Counted from the first letter of the stretch, positions 24,872 to 31,456 are shown. The stretch is DNA of 64,000 nt from Clostridia bacterium (GCA_017504205.1 JAFVRO010000022.1:35292-99291); one strand, 5' to 3'. The notes: generated by a model from the letters alone, not told the origin. Numbers and translations: made by a program.

Positions 24872-26728
24872 TTACGGCACTTGTCGGTACTTTTCCGACT
24901 GCAGATAAAACATCTCGGCGTATTTTCCACCCTTTTCAAGCAACTCGGTGTGGCTGCCTTCCTCGACTAAACGTCCCGTATCAAACATATAGATACGGTC
25001 CGCAATCCGCGTGGTGGAAAGTCTGTGCGATATGAATATTACCGTCTTGTCCTTCGTGCCGTCCAGGATGGATTGATTGAGATTGTACTCCGCCATCGGA
25101 TCAAGCGCACTTGACGGCTCGTCCATAATGATTATCGGATAATCCCTTGCAAAAGTTCGCGCAATTGCCACCTTCTGAGCCTCACCGCCCGAAAGGTTTG
25201 TGCCCGTATCGTCGAACTCCCTCGTCAGATGCGTTTTGATACCCTTTTCCATCCGTCCAAGCCTCTCGGTAAAATCCGCCGACTCAAGCGCACGGTATAC
25301 GGTATCCTCGTCTCCGTCGACGTATTCTCCGTTCATTACGTTCTCAGCAACCGACGTCGCAAATATCTTGTAATCCTGGAAAACCGTGCCGATCATTTGC
25401 CTGTAAGCCGTCGGCTCGAATTCGCGTATATCGATGCCGTTGTAAAGTATTACGCCCTCGGTGGGATCGTACAGACGCATTATAAGCTTTATCAGTGTCG
25501 TTTTTCCCGCACCGTTGTATCCGACAAGAGCGATCTTATCACCGCGCCTGAAGCTGAGATTTACGTTCACCAATGCCTCACGCCCGTCACCGTCACTCTT
25601 TTGCACCTCGTGATCCTCGTCGTGATATTTGTACTTCGGGTGCGCCGAGAACTCGTAAGAGAAGCCGACTCCCCTGAATTCAAGACTTTCAAATTCGGGT
25701 ATGTCTGTGCGCCCCTTTTGTATGCGCGGCTCAAATCTCAAAAACTCAAGATACTTTTCTATGTACAGCGAATGCTTGGGGTATTTCGTCAACCTCTCGA
25801 TAAGATCGGTCAGCAACCAACGTATCTCCCATATGACCGATACGCTCGCCGCAAAGCCGCCCACCTCAAGGCTTCCCGCCGACAATAGCGTTATCATATA
25901 AATTATAATGGAATAAAAGGTAAGATCCCCGACCGTGTTCCATCCCACACCGTAAAGCCAGAAATAGAGCTTTCCGTACTTGCGCTCGCACGCTACCATT
26001 TTTTCGGTGTTTTCATCATACTCACGCATCAGAAGCTCGTCCGCGTGACGGATGCGTATCTCCTTTGCATAATCAGACAGATGATAAACACGGTTGATAT
26101 AATCCTTCTTGCGTTGAAGCGGATTCATCTCCTTGCTCTGCTTGAAGCTGACCTTGTTGCCTATAAGGTTGCAAACAACGGTTATACAGGACGATGAAAA
26201 CAGTATCAATGCAATTATCGGATCTATCGTGATAAGTATTCCAAAAAGCGTCAGGGACGAAACCGTGCGGCTTATCAGCTTTCCCGTGTCCTCAAGCACC
26301 TCGATGGCTCGCTTGTCGGACTCGTTCATTGCCCATACGAAGTCATTGTAAAACTCCGGATCATCAAAGCAGGAAAGATCAAGCGACTGCGATTTTTTGA
26401 ACAACTCCTCGTGCATCTTAAGATGCAGTCTGTCACGCATAAGCGGATTGTGTATTTTCCAATACCACCTGTCAAACGCATACGCAAAAGCGTAAAATAA
26501 CGCCATAACGCCAATAATTTTAAATGCGTACGAAAGCTCCGCTCCTCCGTCAACCGCGTTGAGAAGGGAATAAGAAAGCATTGCCGCCGCCGAATTGATG
26601 ATACCCCATACAAGCCCCTCTACTATCATAAGTAAAAAGTAGTCAGGCGTGTAGCGCGCGATTTTTCCAAGCATAATCAAATTGTTTTTGAATATTGAAC
26701 TTAATTTTTGCCTTTGCTTTTTAGCCAT
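24872..26728 (-). CDS. ABC exporter, fused TMD-NBD half-transporter (second subunit of a heterodimeric pair)
   Basis: 6-TM N-terminal domain, Walker A GYNGAGKTT, signature LSGGEAQKVAIARTF, Walker B IIIMDEPSSALD. Confidence 0.9.
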   Translation of the reverse strand: MAKKQRQKLSSIFKNNLIMLGKIARYTPDYFLLMIVEGLVWGIINSAAAMLSYSLLNAVDGGAELSYAFKIIGVMALFYAFAYAFDRWYWKIHNPLMRDRLHLKMHEELFKKSQSLDLSCFDDPEFYNDFVWAMNESDKRAIEVLEDTGKLISRTVSSLTLFGILITIDPIIALILFSSSCITVVCNLIGNKVSFKQSKEMNPLQRKKDYINRVYHLSDYAKEIRIRHADELLMREYDENTEKMVACERKYGKLYFWLYGVGWNTVGDLTFYSIIIYMITLLSAGSLEVGGFAASVSVIWEIRWLLTDLIERLTKYPKHSLYIEKYLEFLRFEPRIQKGRTDIPEFESLEFRGVGFSYEFSAHPKYKYHDEDHEVQKSDGDGREALVNVNLSFRRGDKIALVGYNGAGKTTLIKLIMRLYDPTEGVILYNGIDIREFEPTAYRQMIGTVFQDYKIFATSVAENVMNGEYVDGDEDTVYRALESADFTERLGRMEKGIKTHLTREFDDTGTNLSGGEAQKVAIARTFARDYPIIIMDEPSSALDPMAEYNLNQSILDGTKDKTVIFISHRLSTTRIADRIYMFDTGRLVEEGSHTELLEKGGKYAEMFYLQSEKYRQVP

Positions 26729-28571
26729 TGAAGTTCACCTCCTGACCAAGATAATTCTCTGCCTGACGGTGAAACATTTCAGCGTATTTGCCACCCTTGG
26801 CAAGCAGCTCCTCATGAGTACCAATCTCTGCAACCGTTCCACCGTCCATAAGTATCACCCTGTCCGCAAGAACTGCCGAAGAAAGACGGTGAGATATAAA
26901 TATCACGCTCCGCCCCTCCGTTGCCTTCATCATGCTCTCAAACATATTGTATTCCGCAATAGGGTCAAGCGCACTTGACGGCTCGTCAAGCAGTACGAAG
27001 GGACACTTGTCCGCAAATACTCTTGCAAGTGAAAGCTTTTGCTGCTCACCTATCGACAGATTTTCGCCCTTCTTATCAAATTCGCGTGTCAGTACCGTGT
27101 AAATACCCTTATCAAACGTGCCGATCTTGGTATAAGCACCGCTTTCCTTCAACGCCTCAATCACGTCCCCGTCCTCGTCATCCCCCGAAGGCCTCAGAAG
27201 CACGTTGTCCTTCACAGTCATAGAAAACATTTTGAAGTCCTGAAAGACCGTGCTGAAGCAGTCGCGCAGACCCTGAACCGGAAAGTCGCGTATGTCTCTG
27301 CCACCAATACTGATAGCCCCCGAGATCGGATCGTATAGCCTTAGCAAAAGCTTTACAAGCGTGGTCTTGCCCGAGCCGTTGCTTCCAACCAAAGCGATCC
27401 TCTCGCCCTTTTTCCATACGAAGCTTACACCGTGAAGCGTGTCGGTCGTGCTACCCTCATATCTGAAGCACAGATCCTTTACCTCCACGTCTCCGCCGTC
27501 GACGGGCGCAGGGGCGTCTCCGTCCTTTATGGTCGGCTCGTAATCAAGGAAATAACGAATGTCCTCAAGGAACAGAGCATGCTCTCCGAACTCGGCAAAA
27601 TTCTGTACCAGATTGTTCAGACAGTACGATATCGTGCCGATAGATCCAAGCACCACGATGCAGTCCCCGACACTCATTCCGCCATTTGCCACACCGACAC
27701 CGAGCGCACGGTATACCGAATACGCAGTGGCGCCGAGAACGGTCACTACCTCAAGCCCAATGCTTTGGATATACCCGAATACAGCCTGCCGCGTTCCGTA
27801 CTTCAAGGTAAGCTTTTTGAAATCACGAAACGTCTCTCTCAGGTCTCGTAGCATATTCACGTACATCCCACCTATACGCATCTCCTTTGCGTATTCGCCA
27901 AGATAGAATGTGCGCTTGACGTAGCTTACACGCCGCGTTATTGGCTTTTTGCCTGCCTCAAGATCGTGCTTCGCAATATTCTCAAGTCTGCGGAATATTC
28001 CAAGCACGAGAGGGAAGAGCGCGAACAGTATAAGATACGGGTCAATTACGAATAGCAGAATCGAGTTGGCAGCAAGTGCAACCACGCGAGCGATAAGATT
28101 ATCAAGCGTCTGCATGACCTTTATCATTCTGTCATACGCCTCGTCCATCGCCCTGACGTACTTGTCATAGAACGTCGGATTTTCATAACAGGCAAGCTCC
28201 ACCTGGGCGGACTTTTTGAATAGCATCTTCTCAACGTAAGCCCCGACACGCTTTCTTTGTATCGGAGCGGGAACGTTCCAGAACCAGCTGAAGTAAAAGT
28301 ACGCAAGCAGACATATCGTACCGAGTATTGCAACGCCCTTCATAATGATCGCAATATCAGTACCCGCCTCAAGCTCGTTGACTATCCTCCTGAGAAGGTA
28401 TCCGCCACTCAGAAAATCCAGCAGGCCGTATACGACGGACGACCCGAGATAGACCGCAAGATATATCGGCGAGGCACGTCCTATTGCCCTTAATGCGAAA
28501 AGATTGTTTGAGGCGCTTCTCCTGAACGGAAGCCGCTTCTTCTTTTCCTTGACTTTTTTCTCCTTTTTCAA
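26721..28571 (-). CDS. ABC exporter, fused TMD-NBD half-transporter (first subunit; TTG start)
   Basis: Walker A GSNGSGKTT, degenerate signature LSIGEQQKLSLARVF, Walker B FVLLDEPSSALD. 8-nt overlap with the downstream partner. Confidence 0.9.
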   Translation of the reverse strand: MKKEKKVKEKKKRLPFRRSASNNLFALRAIGRASPIYLAVYLGSSVVYGLLDFLSGGYLLRRIVNELEAGTDIAIIMKGVAILGTICLLAYFYFSWFWNVPAPIQRKRVGAYVEKMLFKKSAQVELACYENPTFYDKYVRAMDEAYDRMIKVMQTLDNLIARVVALAANSILLFVIDPYLILFALFPLVLGIFRRLENIAKHDLEAGKKPITRRVSYVKRTFYLGEYAKEMRIGGMYVNMLRDLRETFRDFKKLTLKYGTRQAVFGYIQSIGLEVVTVLGATAYSVYRALGVGVANGGMSVGDCIVVLGSIGTISYCLNNLVQNFAEFGEHALFLEDIRYFLDYEPTIKDGDAPAPVDGGDVEVKDLCFRYEGSTTDTLHGVSFVWKKGERIALVGSNGSGKTTLVKLLLRLYDPISGAISIGGRDIRDFPVQGLRDCFSTVFQDFKMFSMTVKDNVLLRPSGDDEDGDVIEALKESGAYTKIGTFDKGIYTVLTREFDKKGENLSIGEQQKLSLARVFADKCPFVLLDEPSSALDPIAEYNMFESMMKATEGRSVIFISHRLSSAVLADRVILMDGGTVAEIGTHEELLAKGGKYAEMFHRQAENYLGQEVNFNG

Positions 28572-28604
28572 TTATGTCACCTCCGTGAACTGAACTGCGC
28601 CGTA

Positions 28605-28666
28605 AAAAACAAAAAAGCACCCACGAAGGATGCACGAAAAAAGCACATCCTGATGCGGATGTGCAT
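28605..28666 (-). terminator. Two tandem intrinsic terminators in the 5' leader of the ABC exporter operon (attenuator); coordinates +/-1
   Basis: The minus strand reads GCACATCC-GCATCA-GGATGTGC-TTTTTT, then GCATCC-TTCGT-GGGTGC-TTTTTTGTTTTTT. Confidence 0.6.
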
Positions 28667-28702
28667 AAATAATAATCTATTCACCCGAAAAGAGAAAAGG
28701 CT

Positions 28703-28786
28703 TTAAAAGCAAAATACACGGGCGATAGATACGACATCCGAACTGTATGAAAAATAATTAACTGTTGCTAAAGACCTGAGCTTCAT
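28703..28786 (-). CDS. Candidate 27-codon leader peptide (MKLRSLATVNYFSYSSDVVSIARVFCF); coordinates +/-1
   Basis: Strong RBS AAAGGAGG 7 nt upstream of the ATG. It lies between a consensus promoter and the tandem terminators. Confidence 0.45.
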   Translation of the reverse strand: MKLRSLATVNYFSYSSDVVSIARVFCF

Positions 28787-28834
28787 ATCTGTCGCCTCCT
28801 TTCTCTGAATTTTGTTTTTTACAACGACCTCTAA

Positions 28835-28863
28835 AGTATATCACCGTATAACCGTTTTGTCAA
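28835..28863 (-). promoter_or_regulatory. Sigma-A type promoter of the leader/ABC exporter operon
   Basis: The minus strand reads TTGACA, 17 nt, TATACT. Confidence 0.6.
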
Positions 28864-28961
28864 TACTTTTTGGAAGATTTTTTCGTTATATATTGCAATA
28901 AAATAAAAAACTGCTCTCGGTAGCGCGGGAGCAGTCTTTTGATATTTGATCCGAGGTCAGA

Positions 28962-29135
28962 TTATAACTGACCCGTAATGAAGAATATAAAGTAAGTCAT
29001 AACTCCCAGAACCATAAGCGCCGAAAGCACCATGGCAAGTATGCGGTAGAATTTTTTTAATGCCGCCGCCTCGCGTGCCTTGGTTTCCTTTTCAGCTTGT
29101 CTTGGGTCAACGCCCTTTCTTTTTTTCTTGGCCAT
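28962..29135 (-). CDS. Small C-terminally anchored membrane protein (57 aa; below the ORF-track cutoff)
   Basis: Manual translation gives MAKKKRKGVDPRQAEKETKAREAAALKKFYRILAMVLSALMVLGVMTYFIFFITGQL. RBS GGAGG lies upstream and a hairpin terminator (actgctc/gagcagt plus T-run, about 28905-28940) lies downstream. Confidence 0.45.
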   Translation of the reverse strand: MAKKKRKGVDPRQAEKETKAREAAALKKFYRILAMVLSALMVLGVMTYFIFFITGQL

Positions 29136-29221: not shown

Positions 29222-31456
29222 TTAAAGCCCCAGCTTTTCTGTCACCGCGTCGGGAAGTGCCGCTCCCGTCGCAGGAAGCTTGATTTTATTGAGCCCTTTT
29301 ACGCCGCCGATCACATCGTCATCGGGCTTCTTCATCACACTGACTACCTTGTGTCCACCCTTGAGCGAAATAACCGTGCTTCCTCCCGAGGTTCGCGTGG
29401 TTTTTTCGGGCAAAAGTGAAGGCTTTATTACGATCGCTTTTTTGTCAGATCCAACGATCATCATTTCAGTAATATCGCTTTCAAAAAACGCCCCAACTAT
29501 CGGAGAGGCATCGGAAAATGCCTTTACAAGCTTTTTCCTGGGAGTCTTTGTTTCATAACAACTCAACGGAACACGGACGCCCTTGCCGTTCTCAAAGACG
29601 AATACCATGTGCTTTTTTTCGCTGAATCCGTCAAGCAACATCATATATATGGGCTTTTCGCCACTCTCCATCCCAAGCTTTGCCGGCATAAAGTCGCCGA
29701 GTGCCGACGCCTTGGAACAGTCAAAATCACTTACCTTAAAACGGTAAAGATTGCACATAGATCCGAACAGAAGTATCTCCGCCGTGTTCGTTGCGTCAAA
29801 TACCTGGAGCAACTCATCTCCGTCCTTGTTGGCGGTGATCTCATCGTTACCTCTGAGTGATTGGAAGGTTATCTTCTTGAAGTATCCCTCCTTGGTGATT
29901 GCGAGACGCACCTTGTAATCGTCAATAAATTCCTCCTCGCGGTATACCTCAATGTCCTCCTCGGCCATTATCTGCGAAAGTCTCGGCTTGCCGTACTTCT
30001 TCTTGACCTCCTGAAGCTCCTTGATAATGTACGCCTTTTGCTTTAGCTCGTCCGCAATGGTAGCCTCAAGCTCTGCGATCTCCTTTTGAAGTCCCTCAAT
30101 ATCGGCAATACGGTTGAGAATATACTCGCGGTTAAGATTTCTGAGCTTTATTTCGGCAATGTAATCCGCCTGTATCTTGTCTATGCTAAAACCGGTCATA
30201 AGATTGGGAACAACGTCCGCCTCCTTTTCGGTGCGGCGTATAATGCGTATCGCCTTGTCAATGTCAAGCAGTATAGCACCAAGACCTAACAGCAAATGAA
30301 GCCTATCCTTCTTTTTGCCAAGCTCAAATATCAGTTTTCTCTTGAGACATTCAAGCCTGAATCTGATCCACTCGTTGAGTATTCCAACAACTCCAAGCTG
30401 CATAGGGACCGAGCCTACGAGAATATTGAAGTTGCACTTGAAGGAGTCCTCAAGTGGCGTCAGCTTAAATAACTTCAACATCAGCTTGTCGGGGTCAACA
30501 CCTTTTTTCAGATCGAGCGTGAGCTTGAAGCCACTCAGGTCTATCTCGTCGCGGAAATCACTGACCTCACGAAGCTTTCCCGCCTTTGCAAGCTCATCAA
30601 GCTTTTTCATTATCGGCTCTATCGTGGTCGATTCGGGAATCTCTATGATGTCAATACAGTTCTGCGATTTGTCGTAACGGTAACGCGCGCGGATCTTGAA
30701 AGAGCCTGTGCCGTTTTCATATATGCGCTCCATTCCCGCACGGTTGTATATTACCGTGCCACCGCCGGAAAGATCGGGAGCCTTGATGATCTCCATAATC
30801 TGCTCCGTCGTCGTTTTTGGGTTGCGTAATAGGGCAATGGTACCGTCACAAACCTCGCCGAGGTTGAATGAACAGATATTTGATGCCATACCGACCGCTA
30901 TACCCGTGTTTGGCATAACTAAAATGTTGGGGAAAGTAGTAGGAAGCAGTGTTGGCTCCTGAAGCGTACCGTCATAGTTGTCAACCATATCTACCGCGTT
31001 ATAGTCAATATCCTTGAAAAACTCCGCGCATATCTGCGCAAGTTTTGCCTCAGTGTATCTCGACGCCGCATATTTCATCTCCGTCGAATAGTGCTTACCA
31101 AAGCTTCCCTTTGAGTCAACAAGCGGATGAAGCAGCGTCTCGTTACCCTGCGTCAGACGTACCATCGTCTCATATATCGCCTGGTCTCCATGCGGGTTGA
31201 GCTTCATAGTCTGACCTACAATATTCGCGCTCTTTGTGCGAGGACCCGTCAGAAGTCCCATCTTGTACATTGTGTAGAGAAGCTTTCTGTGTGACGGCTT
31301 CAGTCCGTCTATCTCCGGGATAGCTCTTGATATAATGACACTCATAACGTATGGCATGTAGTTTTTCTCGAGCGTTTCCGTTATAGGTTGATCTTGTATA
31401 GGGGCGTGTACTATCTCTATTTCCTCTTCGGATTTTCCACGTCTTTTCTTTGCCAT
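29222..31456 (-). CDS. Type IIA DNA topoisomerase subunit A (ParC/GyrA-like, 744 aa)
   Basis: RAIPEIDGLKPSHRKLLY, NPHGDQAIYETMVRL and the active-site Tyr context AASRYTEAKL. Confidence 0.85.
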   Translation of the reverse strand: MAKKRRGKSEEEIEIVHAPIQDQPITETLEKNYMPYVMSVIISRAIPEIDGLKPSHRKLLYTMYKMGLLTGPRTKSANIVGQTMKLNPHGDQAIYETMVRLTQGNETLLHPLVDSKGSFGKHYSTEMKYAASRYTEAKLAQICAEFFKDIDYNAVDMVDNYDGTLQEPTLLPTTFPNILVMPNTGIAVGMASNICSFNLGEVCDGTIALLRNPKTTTEQIMEIIKAPDLSGGGTVIYNRAGMERIYENGTGSFKIRARYRYDKSQNCIDIIEIPESTTIEPIMKKLDELAKAGKLREVSDFRDEIDLSGFKLTLDLKKGVDPDKLMLKLFKLTPLEDSFKCNFNILVGSVPMQLGVVGILNEWIRFRLECLKRKLIFELGKKKDRLHLLLGLGAILLDIDKAIRIIRRTEKEADVVPNLMTGFSIDKIQADYIAEIKLRNLNREYILNRIADIEGLQKEIAELEATIADELKQKAYIIKELQEVKKKYGKPRLSQIMAEEDIEVYREEEFIDDYKVRLAITKEGYFKKITFQSLRGNDEITANKDGDELLQVFDATNTAEILLFGSMCNLYRFKVSDFDCSKASALGDFMPAKLGMESGEKPIYMMLLDGFSEKKHMVFVFENGKGVRVPLSCYETKTPRKKLVKAFSDASPIVGAFFESDITEMMIVGSDKKAIVIKPSLLPEKTTRTSGGSTVISLKGGHKVVSVMKKPDDDVIGGVKGLNKIKLPATGAALPDAVTEKLGL

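Follow-up and report, generated by a model that had tools for sequence, protein, structure and literature searches.

We analysed a 64,000-nt stretch of DNA from a Clostridia bacterium (GCA_017504205.1 JAFVRO010000022.1:35292-99291), hereafter the window, whose coordinates are used throughout, and found on its minus strand a structured RNA leader in front of two adjacent ATP-binding cassette (ABC) half-transporter genes, ABC1 and ABC2. This leader is probably a ribosome-mediated transcription attenuator of the anti-antiterminator/antiterminator/terminator type that has two linked terminators. Ribosome-mediated attenuation of the vmlR/bmrB type is a known kind of switch; judged by sequence comparison, the present leaders stand out by a longer upstream open reading frame (uORF), which extends across the antiterminator strand, by an initiation region placed inside the anti-antiterminator, and by a linked terminator pair. 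The same comparison assigns the leader to an uncatalogued family of RNA leaders conserved among gut Clostridia, in which the leader RNA appears to be under constraint and the uORF peptide does not.

The leader was read directly on the minus strand from window positions 28400-29100, and its parts are listed in Table 1. Its promoter matches the consensus at 11 of 12 positions, carries an extended -10 TG, and was the top promoter-like site in a consensus scan of 9 kb; transcription would start near 28828. Downstream lie a Shine-Dalgarno (SD) sequence (AAAGGAGG) placed 8 nt before the ATG of a 27-codon uORF, the terminators T1 (-13.5 kcal/mol) and T2 (-8.1 kcal/mol), with 3 nt between the U-tract of T1 and the stem of T2, and the TTG start of ABC1 with an SD sequence of its own. 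Both terminators were found independently by a promoter/terminator scan. An earlier note on this DNA had named these elements, namely a consensus TTGACA-17-TATACT promoter, a very strong ribosome-binding site with a 27-codon reading frame, the two terminators and the TTG start, and all of them were borne out. Since there is no room for a promoter between T2 and ABC1, the ABC1-ABC2 pair must be transcribed through T1 and T2. The fold energy of the 259-nt leader corresponded to z = -4.36, with none of 200 shuffles as stable, and the window contains exactly one copy of the leader.

Eighty loci encoding ABC1 relatives were fetched and searched with an nhmmer leader profile, which recovered the leader in 14 of them. 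Metagenomes were scanned with a pattern that fixed only the segment b and T1 and was unbiased for uORF, SD, T2, and gene content; it gave 63 hits, compared with a few expected by a rough estimate. The leader is thus present in at least 14 related genomes and ~57 metagenome contigs. In alignments made by eye and with a tool, the segments follow one another in a conserved 5'-to-3' order: first a, which comprises the SD, the spacer, and the AUG; then CGGAUGU as b and a stretch c of ~14 nt with UCGCC at its end; and finally the arms of T1 (d and e) and of T2 (f and g). The sequence rule of the family reads AAGGAGGC, N, CGGAUGU, 10 nt, GCC, followed by CAUCCG...GGGUG-U and GCACCC...GGGUGC-U. A -35/-10 match was found in 41 of 43 non-redundant family leaders (TTGACA in 36, TTGACT in 5, TATACT in 32), mostly 25-35 nt upstream of the SD, and 39 of the 43 had the extended -10 TG. 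A generic hairpin-plus-U-run finder was used to score T2 in 66 leaders (52 from metagenomes, the window, and 13 genome loci) and detected it in 61 of them, though T2 lay outside the search pattern. In L144, the locus of the closest relative of the window exporter (87% protein identity), the leader was 94.3% identical to that of the window compared with 80.5% for the ABC1 gene, and all functional leader segments were identical. A permissive cmscan of the window leader against Rfam release 15 gave only two spurious eukaryotic matches (E ~8), and nothing relevant was found in 16 related loci at the gathering threshold or in L001 with permissive settings.

The minimum-free-energy (MFE) fold paired the SD/AUG region (a) with segment c, forming a helix that we term P1. 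RNAalifold, run without imposed structure on 29 diverse hairpin regions, predicted P1 with compensatory changes in 4 of 6 pairs. When pairs were counted for an extended P1, which also includes the AUG and the 3' end of b, 85% were paired and seven pairs showed double-sided changes; none of 500 shuffles was as good and slid registers reached only 27-59%. An anchored-column comparison agreed with P1. The loop of the helix varies from ~10 to 90 nt and has no conserved sequence. P1 has the properties of an anti-antiterminator, as it encloses the site of uORF initiation and shares the 3' part of b with the antiterminator; because it extends over the AUG and the 3' end of b, it would sequester both the initiation region and part of the antiterminator strand, and it is probably the ribosome-sensing step. 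The pairings in the five-segment layout drawn by the earlier note were recovered, but the sixth segment, a, with its covariation-supported helix, had been missed. In the MFE fold of the window, GAGAAAGG (28798-28805, overlapping the 5' part of the SD) also pairs with CCUUUUCUC (28692-28701, just past the uORF stop), which extends SD sequestration beyond the family-wide P1; L144 has one substitution there.

Two alternative pairings noticed earlier proved to be conserved features of the family. The uORF segment CGGAUGUCGUA, which comprises b and the start of c, pairs with UAUGCACAUCCG (d, containing the 5' arm of T1) at -11.6 kcal/mol. The 3' arm of T1 pairs with the 5' arm of T2 (e:f) at -11.4 kcal/mol in the window, over 9 bp where 8 bp had been noted. 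The family mean for e:f was -11.3 kcal/mol, compared with -4.6 kcal/mol for a background of 230 arms of unrelated terminators in the same loci, and values of -9 kcal/mol or better were reached by 84% of the family versus 5.7% of the background. Compared with the family sequences GGGUG in e and CACCC in f, the window has GGAUG and CAUCC, and its g is still GGGUG; the change is compensatory, e G>A with f C>U, and keeps e:f, not f:g.

Effects of a ribosome on folding were modelled with a 31-nt mask as footprint, and the window uORF was scanned over all 28 codons as P-site positions. At equilibrium, P1 and T1 formed in the free leader of ~90% of members. With the AUG masked, P1 was gone and the gap between the antiterminator and T1 folds fell from +6.5 to +1.6 kcal/mol in the family and from +10.3 to +4.5 kcal/mol in the window. 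An equilibrium switch was rejected, as the masked start left T1 in the MFE structure of the window and of most members. The antiterminator fold is the worse one at equilibrium, and the model therefore needs a kinetic trap; the folding results suggest that the antiterminator would win kinetically. Kinetic analysis addressed the transcript from which d is out and e has not yet emerged. Folding with and without masking, a check the earlier note had proposed, gave 11.8 bp of P1 and 0.1 bp of b:d for the free window RNA at this stage, and 0 and 6.9 bp, respectively, with a ribosome at codons 1-6. At later positions b:d did not exceed 0.5 bp (codons 7-24) or 2.7 bp (codons 25-28); P1 re-formed at codons 7-16, and b and c were covered from codon 17 on. 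A ribosome at the stop codon was also considered as the ON state and was rejected for the window (b:d 0.0-2.7 bp). Across the family, placing a ribosome at the AUG gave b:d in all 52 unique leaders, versus 54% of the free ones.

We propose that a strong constitutive promoter drives the leader and that the first 225 nt of the transcript decide whether RNA polymerase gains access to the exporter genes. The modelled folds make it likely that the default state is OFF and that the switch is ON only with a ribosome held at the first codons. With no ribosome at the uORF start, a would pair with c in P1, tying up the 3' part of b, so that T1 (d:e) forms and T2 (f:g) serves as backup. Under normal translation, the ribosome would cover b and c while d and e emerge, and T1 would form as well. 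A ribosome held at the uORF start, with P-site codons 1-6 as the predicted range in the window, would block P1 and leave b and c free to pair with d as it emerges; e, left single, would then capture f, neither T1 nor T2 would form, and polymerase would enter ABC1-ABC2. In short family members b begins 18-24 nt after the A of the AUG, and because of this spacing they would respond essentially at the start codon only.

Several results weigh against this model. In the window, T1 remained the equilibrium structure (~8 bp) under every footprint, and the antiterminated fold was 4.5 kcal/mol worse even with the start masked. The free members that already showed b:d before e emerged, 54% of the family, indicate that P1 is no strong block everywhere. 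The combination of a:c and b:d has the topology of an H-type pseudoknot, so that the two may coexist, and the folding program is blind to pseudoknots. A subgroup resembling L083 lacks the e:f relay. The search pattern itself prescribed segments b and d, which hardly vary among the leaders, and covariation of b:d is thus not readable from this sample. A NusG-type TTNTTT pause motif upstream of T1 was not clearly enriched (9 of 43 leaders, compared with ~8% expected); the window itself carries TTATTT there. Finally, many ABC1 orthologues are without a leader of this family. Counted in favour of the model are the unrelated uORF-plus-terminator leaders that stand upstream of other ABC1 orthologues.

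The logic of attenuation has been shown experimentally for vmlR and bmrB (PMC9226507; PMC4191407). In the vmlR leader of Bacillus subtilis, a 3-codon uORF lies in the anti-antiterminator hairpin, and lincomycin or retapamulin arrests the initiating ribosome, which leads to the antiterminator (PMC9226507). As in vmlR and in ABC-F leaders of the lmo0919 type (PMC9226507; Dar et al. 2016, summarised in PMC5418344), the anti-antiterminator here holds the uORF initiation region, and we predict the same course of events: an initiation-arrested ribosome would prevent that hairpin, the antiterminator would form, and the intrinsic terminator would be bypassed, with OFF as the default. The geometry also fits the toeprint of the initiating 30S subunit, reported at +16 for vmlR (PMC9226507): b starts at +19 or later, and the family-wide minimum of 18 nt between the AUG and b lies just past the toeprint. 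Unlike the 3-codon uORF of vmlR, the family uORFs have 16-30 codons (47 in one member) and run through the 5' strand of the antiterminator, so elongating ribosomes would also enforce termination. Further differences are the two terminators joined by the e:f relay, the lack of sequence similarity or of an Rfam match, and the lack of evidence here for a NusG pause or for an SD-sequestering hairpin at the main gene. The controlled genes also differ, being membrane ABC exporters, PF09818 ATPases, and others rather than ABC-F proteins.

The earlier note had invoked the logic of the B. subtilis exporter BmrCD, which is controlled by bmrB, a 162-nt ORF (~54 codons) with a single terminator inside the coding region that responds to lincomycin, chloramphenicol, and erythromycin (PMC4191407). 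Both systems place a leader-peptide-dependent transcription attenuator before a heterodimeric ABC exporter pair, with a constitutive upstream promoter and read-through, here predicted, only on ribosome perturbation. In contrast to bmrB, the window uORF ends 38 nt before T1 and is followed by two terminators. With P1 as the probable ribosome-sensing step, vmlR-type leaders are therefore the closer analogue: the comparative and folding evidence supports ribosome-dependent attenuation as the note proposed it, and the leader is neither most like bmrB nor specific to exporters. The erm(K)/erm(D)-class attenuators likewise combine a leader peptide with a pair of neighbouring Rho-independent terminators ahead of an inducible gene (Kwak et al. 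1991, cited in PMC4335068). That gene encodes an rRNA methylase, and its induction requires a specific macrolide-arrest peptide, whereas here ABC exporters lie downstream, the peptide is not conserved, and the sensing site is apparently the first codons.

By analogy with vmlR, the trigger would be an inhibitor of translation that stalls ribosomes at initiation or close to it, such as lincosamides, pleuromutilins, or streptogramin A. The same attenuator could also answer a non-antibiotic signal, with general trouble in initiation or early elongation, or ribosome availability, tuning the exporter and PF09818 genes; nutrient downshift, the stringent response, cold, or lost initiator tRNA formylation are examples. 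This is consistent with short family members that can respond only to a ribosome at the start codon, with a comparison of uORF peptides that found no arrest motif common to the family, and with controlled genes (ABC exporter, PF09818 ATPase, AMP-binding enzyme, and unknowns) that are not known resistance genes and score far below the cut-offs of NCBIfam resistance models. However, vmlR, bmrB, lmo0919, ermK, and mef/mel, the characterised leaders with this logic, all respond to ribosome-targeting drugs (PMC9226507, PMC4191407, PMC5418344, PMC4335068), and exporters are typical targets of drug-responsive attenuation, so we regard a non-antibiotic signal as unlikely.

The uORF itself bears on whether a ribosome is involved at all. 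The SD and AUG were 7-9 nt apart in 36 of 44 leaders and 5-11 nt apart in all 44, and the AUG was in frame with the uORF stop in 43 of them. This stop always preceded T1, by 8-38 nt, and the AUG-to-b distance was never shorter than 18 nt. Although the metagenome pattern did not require a uORF, ~57 of its 63 hits had one with a strong SD spanning b, with a length of 15-30 codons. The uORF is thus presumably translated. These regularities argue against a ligand- or protein-binding RNA switch whose expression platform would consist of P1, the antiterminator, and T1, with an incidental uORF and an 'SD' kept only as an arm of P1. Such a switch would account for conserved segments that act at the RNA level and for the inclusion of the 3' part of the SD and the AUG in P1, and an open frame of 16-18 codons is not improbable by itself. 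Yet the 5' Gs of GGAGG are conserved and for the most part stay outside the pairing of P1 (only 24% of sequences pair at column k=-4), the P1 loop, the would-be aptamer site, has no conserved sequence in its variable length, and no Rfam family matches. We therefore judge an RNA switch to be improbable, and retain the ribosome-mediated attenuator as the preferred reading.

What the uORF encodes appears to matter little. Among the 66 leaders, block b is read in frame 0 in 45, in frame 1 in 17, and in frame 2 in 4, which indicates that it is constrained as RNA, not as peptide. The segment that the earlier note had read as the codons S-D-V does pair with the 5' arm of T1, but its codon identity is incidental, as the same nucleotides read R-M-S or G-C-R in relatives; a conserved S-D-V peptide motif, first seen in five relatives, was rejected on these grounds. 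The three uORF substitutions between the window and L144 are all non-synonymous. The N-terminus M-K-L-R of the window peptide resembles the +x+ macrolide-arrest motif of ErmDL (MRLR), which would presumably put an arrest at codon 3, within the predicted ON range; the motif is not common to the family.

These observations leave little room for the 27-codon frame as a real small-peptide gene (a signal, bacteriocin, or other exporter substrate), with leaky T1 and T2 setting a high ratio of peptide to transporter transcripts as after lantibiotic structural genes. A strong promoter and SD, a hydrophobic, Cys-containing C-terminus in the window and a few relatives (L004 and L016), and the ABC exporter immediately downstream would all suit such a gene. 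However, the peptide is not conserved, the leader also stands before cytoplasmic ATPases and an AMP-binding enzyme, and neither exporter protein has a peptidase domain, which makes this reading very improbable. Least credible is a classical amino-acid attenuator, with stalling at scarce-amino-acid codons of the uORF controlling read-through: the layout of uORF plus terminator is like that of the trp, his, and leu leaders, but no codon run or enrichment is conserved across the family peptides, the predicted ON codons 1-6 (MKLRSL in the window) differ between members, and the downstream genes are not biosynthetic.

Table 1 Features of the leader and the exporter genes in the window, and positions of a second structured leader in loci of ABC1 orthologues.
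Feature	Position	Strand	Description
Promoter	28835-28863	-	TTGACA 28863-28858, 17-nt spacer, TATACT 28840-28835, extended -10 TG 28843-28842
Segment a	28782-28802	-	SD AAAGGAGG 28802-28795, spacer, and AUG 28786-28784; 5' arm of helix P1
uORF	28703-28786	-	ATG 28786, stop TAA 28705-28703, 27 codons, peptide MKLRSLATVNYFSYSSDVVSIARVFCF
Segment b	28734-28740	-	CGGAUGU block inside the uORF; putative 5' strand of antiterminator; sequence same as T1 3' arm
Segment c	28719-28733	-	CGUAUCUAUCGCCCG; P1 3' arm; alternatively extends antiterminator, pairing with 28687-28675 and 28667-28664
Segment d	28656-28667	-	UAUGCACAUCCG; T1 5' arm 28664-28657 plus flanks; antiterminator partner of b and start of c
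Terminator T1	28637-28664	-	GCACAUCC, loop GCAUCA, GGAUGUGC (segment e, 28650-28643), U6 28642-28637
Terminator T2	28604-28633	-	GCAUCC (segment f, 28633-28628), loop UUCGU, GGGUGC (segment g, 28622-28617), U6GU6
ABC1 half-transporter	26721-28584	-	616 aa, TTG start 28571, SD GGAGGUGA 28584-28577
ABC2 half-transporter	24872-26728	-	618 aa, overlaps ABC1 by 8 nt
Second structured leader	L001 3796-3958; L003 3755-3920; L008 3782-3947; L121 3224-3390; L029, L034 3778-3937		
Second structured leader	L035 3792-3951; L036 3773-3930; L039 2629-2790; L037 3765-3923		

The exporter pair resembles the heterodimeric type IV (ABCB-like) exporters BmrCD, TM287/288, and LmrCD in having adjacent, overlapping half-transporter genes, each encoding a membrane domain and a nucleotide-binding domain (NBD), and in the non-canonical signature of one subunit. 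ABC1 has the signature LSIGEQQ and ABC2 has LSGGEAQ; both have the Walker B sequence DEPS and the motif FISHR. The signature LS[I/V]GE was found in 100 of 120 ABC1 orthologues. The degenerate signature that the earlier note had reported for one NBD is therefore real, but a classical degenerate site is not evident: unlike in the known heterodimers, the catalytic Walker-B Glu (DEPS/T) is kept in all 120 ABC1 orthologues and in the window ABC2, and loss of this Glu or of the H-loop His was not found in ABC1 or ABC2. Both proteins match ABC_tran and, below threshold, many type-IV exporter models; in NCBIfam, only generic sub-threshold matches were obtained. The membrane domains (24872-28571) gave no Pfam ABC_membrane match at E <= 1e-3, as they are too divergent, and the NBDs are typical; in this respect, too, the pair differs from the known heterodimers. 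The match of ABC1 to YheI (BmrC) had E ~2e-48, covered residues 242-604 only, mostly the NBD, and was no better than that to Sav1866 and worse than that to ABCB1 (P-glycoprotein). ABC1 is thus no orthologue of BmrC, and BmrCD is an analogue only. The 8-nt gene overlap at 26721-26728 suggests translational coupling, and the window pair is more likely to be inducible than to serve as a housekeeping exporter.

Upstream of the leader, on the same strand, lies a gene for a 744-aa GyrA/ParC-like protein (29222-31456), which reaches none of the NCBIfam equivalog cut-offs. Next comes a small ORF of 57 aa (28962-29135), and a strong terminator (28910-28935) closes both. The order topoisomerase, small ORF, leader, and ABC pair is kept in L144 (positions 1-1141), where the small ORF was called with 75 aa.

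Elsewhere the leader precedes other genes. Most metagenomic copies (L081-L143, for example L118, L100, L128, and L105) stand before genes for proteins of ~600 aa with the domains PF09818 (ABC_ATPase) and MRB1590_C. In L100 and L128, the PF09818 gene is followed by two ABC half-transporters that share 25-31% identity with ABC1. Further copies stand before genes for an AMP-binding enzyme (L117, L092/L094, and L109), a 320-aa protein without Pfam match (L102), and other unknown proteins; the window has no PF09818 gene. The leader is therefore a portable module. A leader specific to this exporter family was considered and rejected, as most copies precede PF09818 ATPases and many ABC1 orthologues have none. 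Conservation upstream of orthologous exporters, a check that the earlier note had proposed, accordingly holds for part of the orthologues only.

No bacterial function is assigned to the commonest targets, the PF09818 ATPases, and the one relative known to be characterised is an RNA-binding ATPase; a literature search on bacterial PF09818 returned nothing beyond T. brucei MRB1590. Leaders of this type are reliable flags for genes turned on when translation is attacked, and Term-seq work reportedly used such leaders to find new resistance genes. The association with the leader thus gives the PF09818 ATPases a testable hypothesis. As a speculative idea, to which we give rather little credence, the leader may mark an unrecognised translation-stress (probably antibiotic) regulon in gut Clostridia: a portable RNA would sense initiation-stuck ribosomes and switch on divergent heterodimeric ABC exporters and PF09818/MRB1590-like P-loop proteins, sometimes in one operon (L100 and L128). 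In that case the PF09818 proteins would represent a new class of factors that confer tolerance or resistance by acting on the ribosome or on RNA, and the exporters would add to the intrinsic resistance pumps of the gut microbiome as new ones. With its clear sequence rules, the family is suited to a covariance model and to a listing of the regulon across gut Clostridia. The linked double terminator, built on complementarity between the T1 3' and T2 5' arms, would be a compact means of combining a tight OFF state with a single-event ON state, with possible use in synthetic attenuators.

Some ABC1 orthologues have no obvious leader, and others have leaders of different kinds. Directly upstream of a number of ABC1 orthologues we observed a second structured leader (Table 1). 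It has a separate promoter and terminator, is closed by an invariant stem GCUACACAAA...UUUGUGUAGC, and contains a CAACAAACGRAGGG motif. It falls into two subgroups with different interiors; no uORF was evident in it and no Rfam match was found. This RNA may be a riboswitch or a protein-binding RNA. In seven loci (L001, L003, L121, L029, L034, L035, and L037) it lies downstream of the uORF leader, and two attenuators therefore stand in tandem.

In L045-L054, an unrelated 18-codon uORF with the conserved peptide MKMHYRYDGDNYHSRL[T/I]V lies ~130-195 nt upstream of the start of the ABC1 orthologue and is followed, 26-34 nt on, by a terminator AGAGUCUUCG...GAAGACUCU-U. The arrangement suggests that another type of leader-peptide attenuator serves this exporter family, with a peptide that is apparently sequence-specific. 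Distant ABC relatives (25% identity) in Eubacterium/Roseburia metagenome-assembled genomes (L075-L080) have, 165-264 nt upstream, a 32-codon uORF MIRTI[R/K]TTNHAHL...VTRA with the SD AAGGAGG, followed by a 14-bp terminator, as a further independent leader of the uORF-plus-terminator kind.

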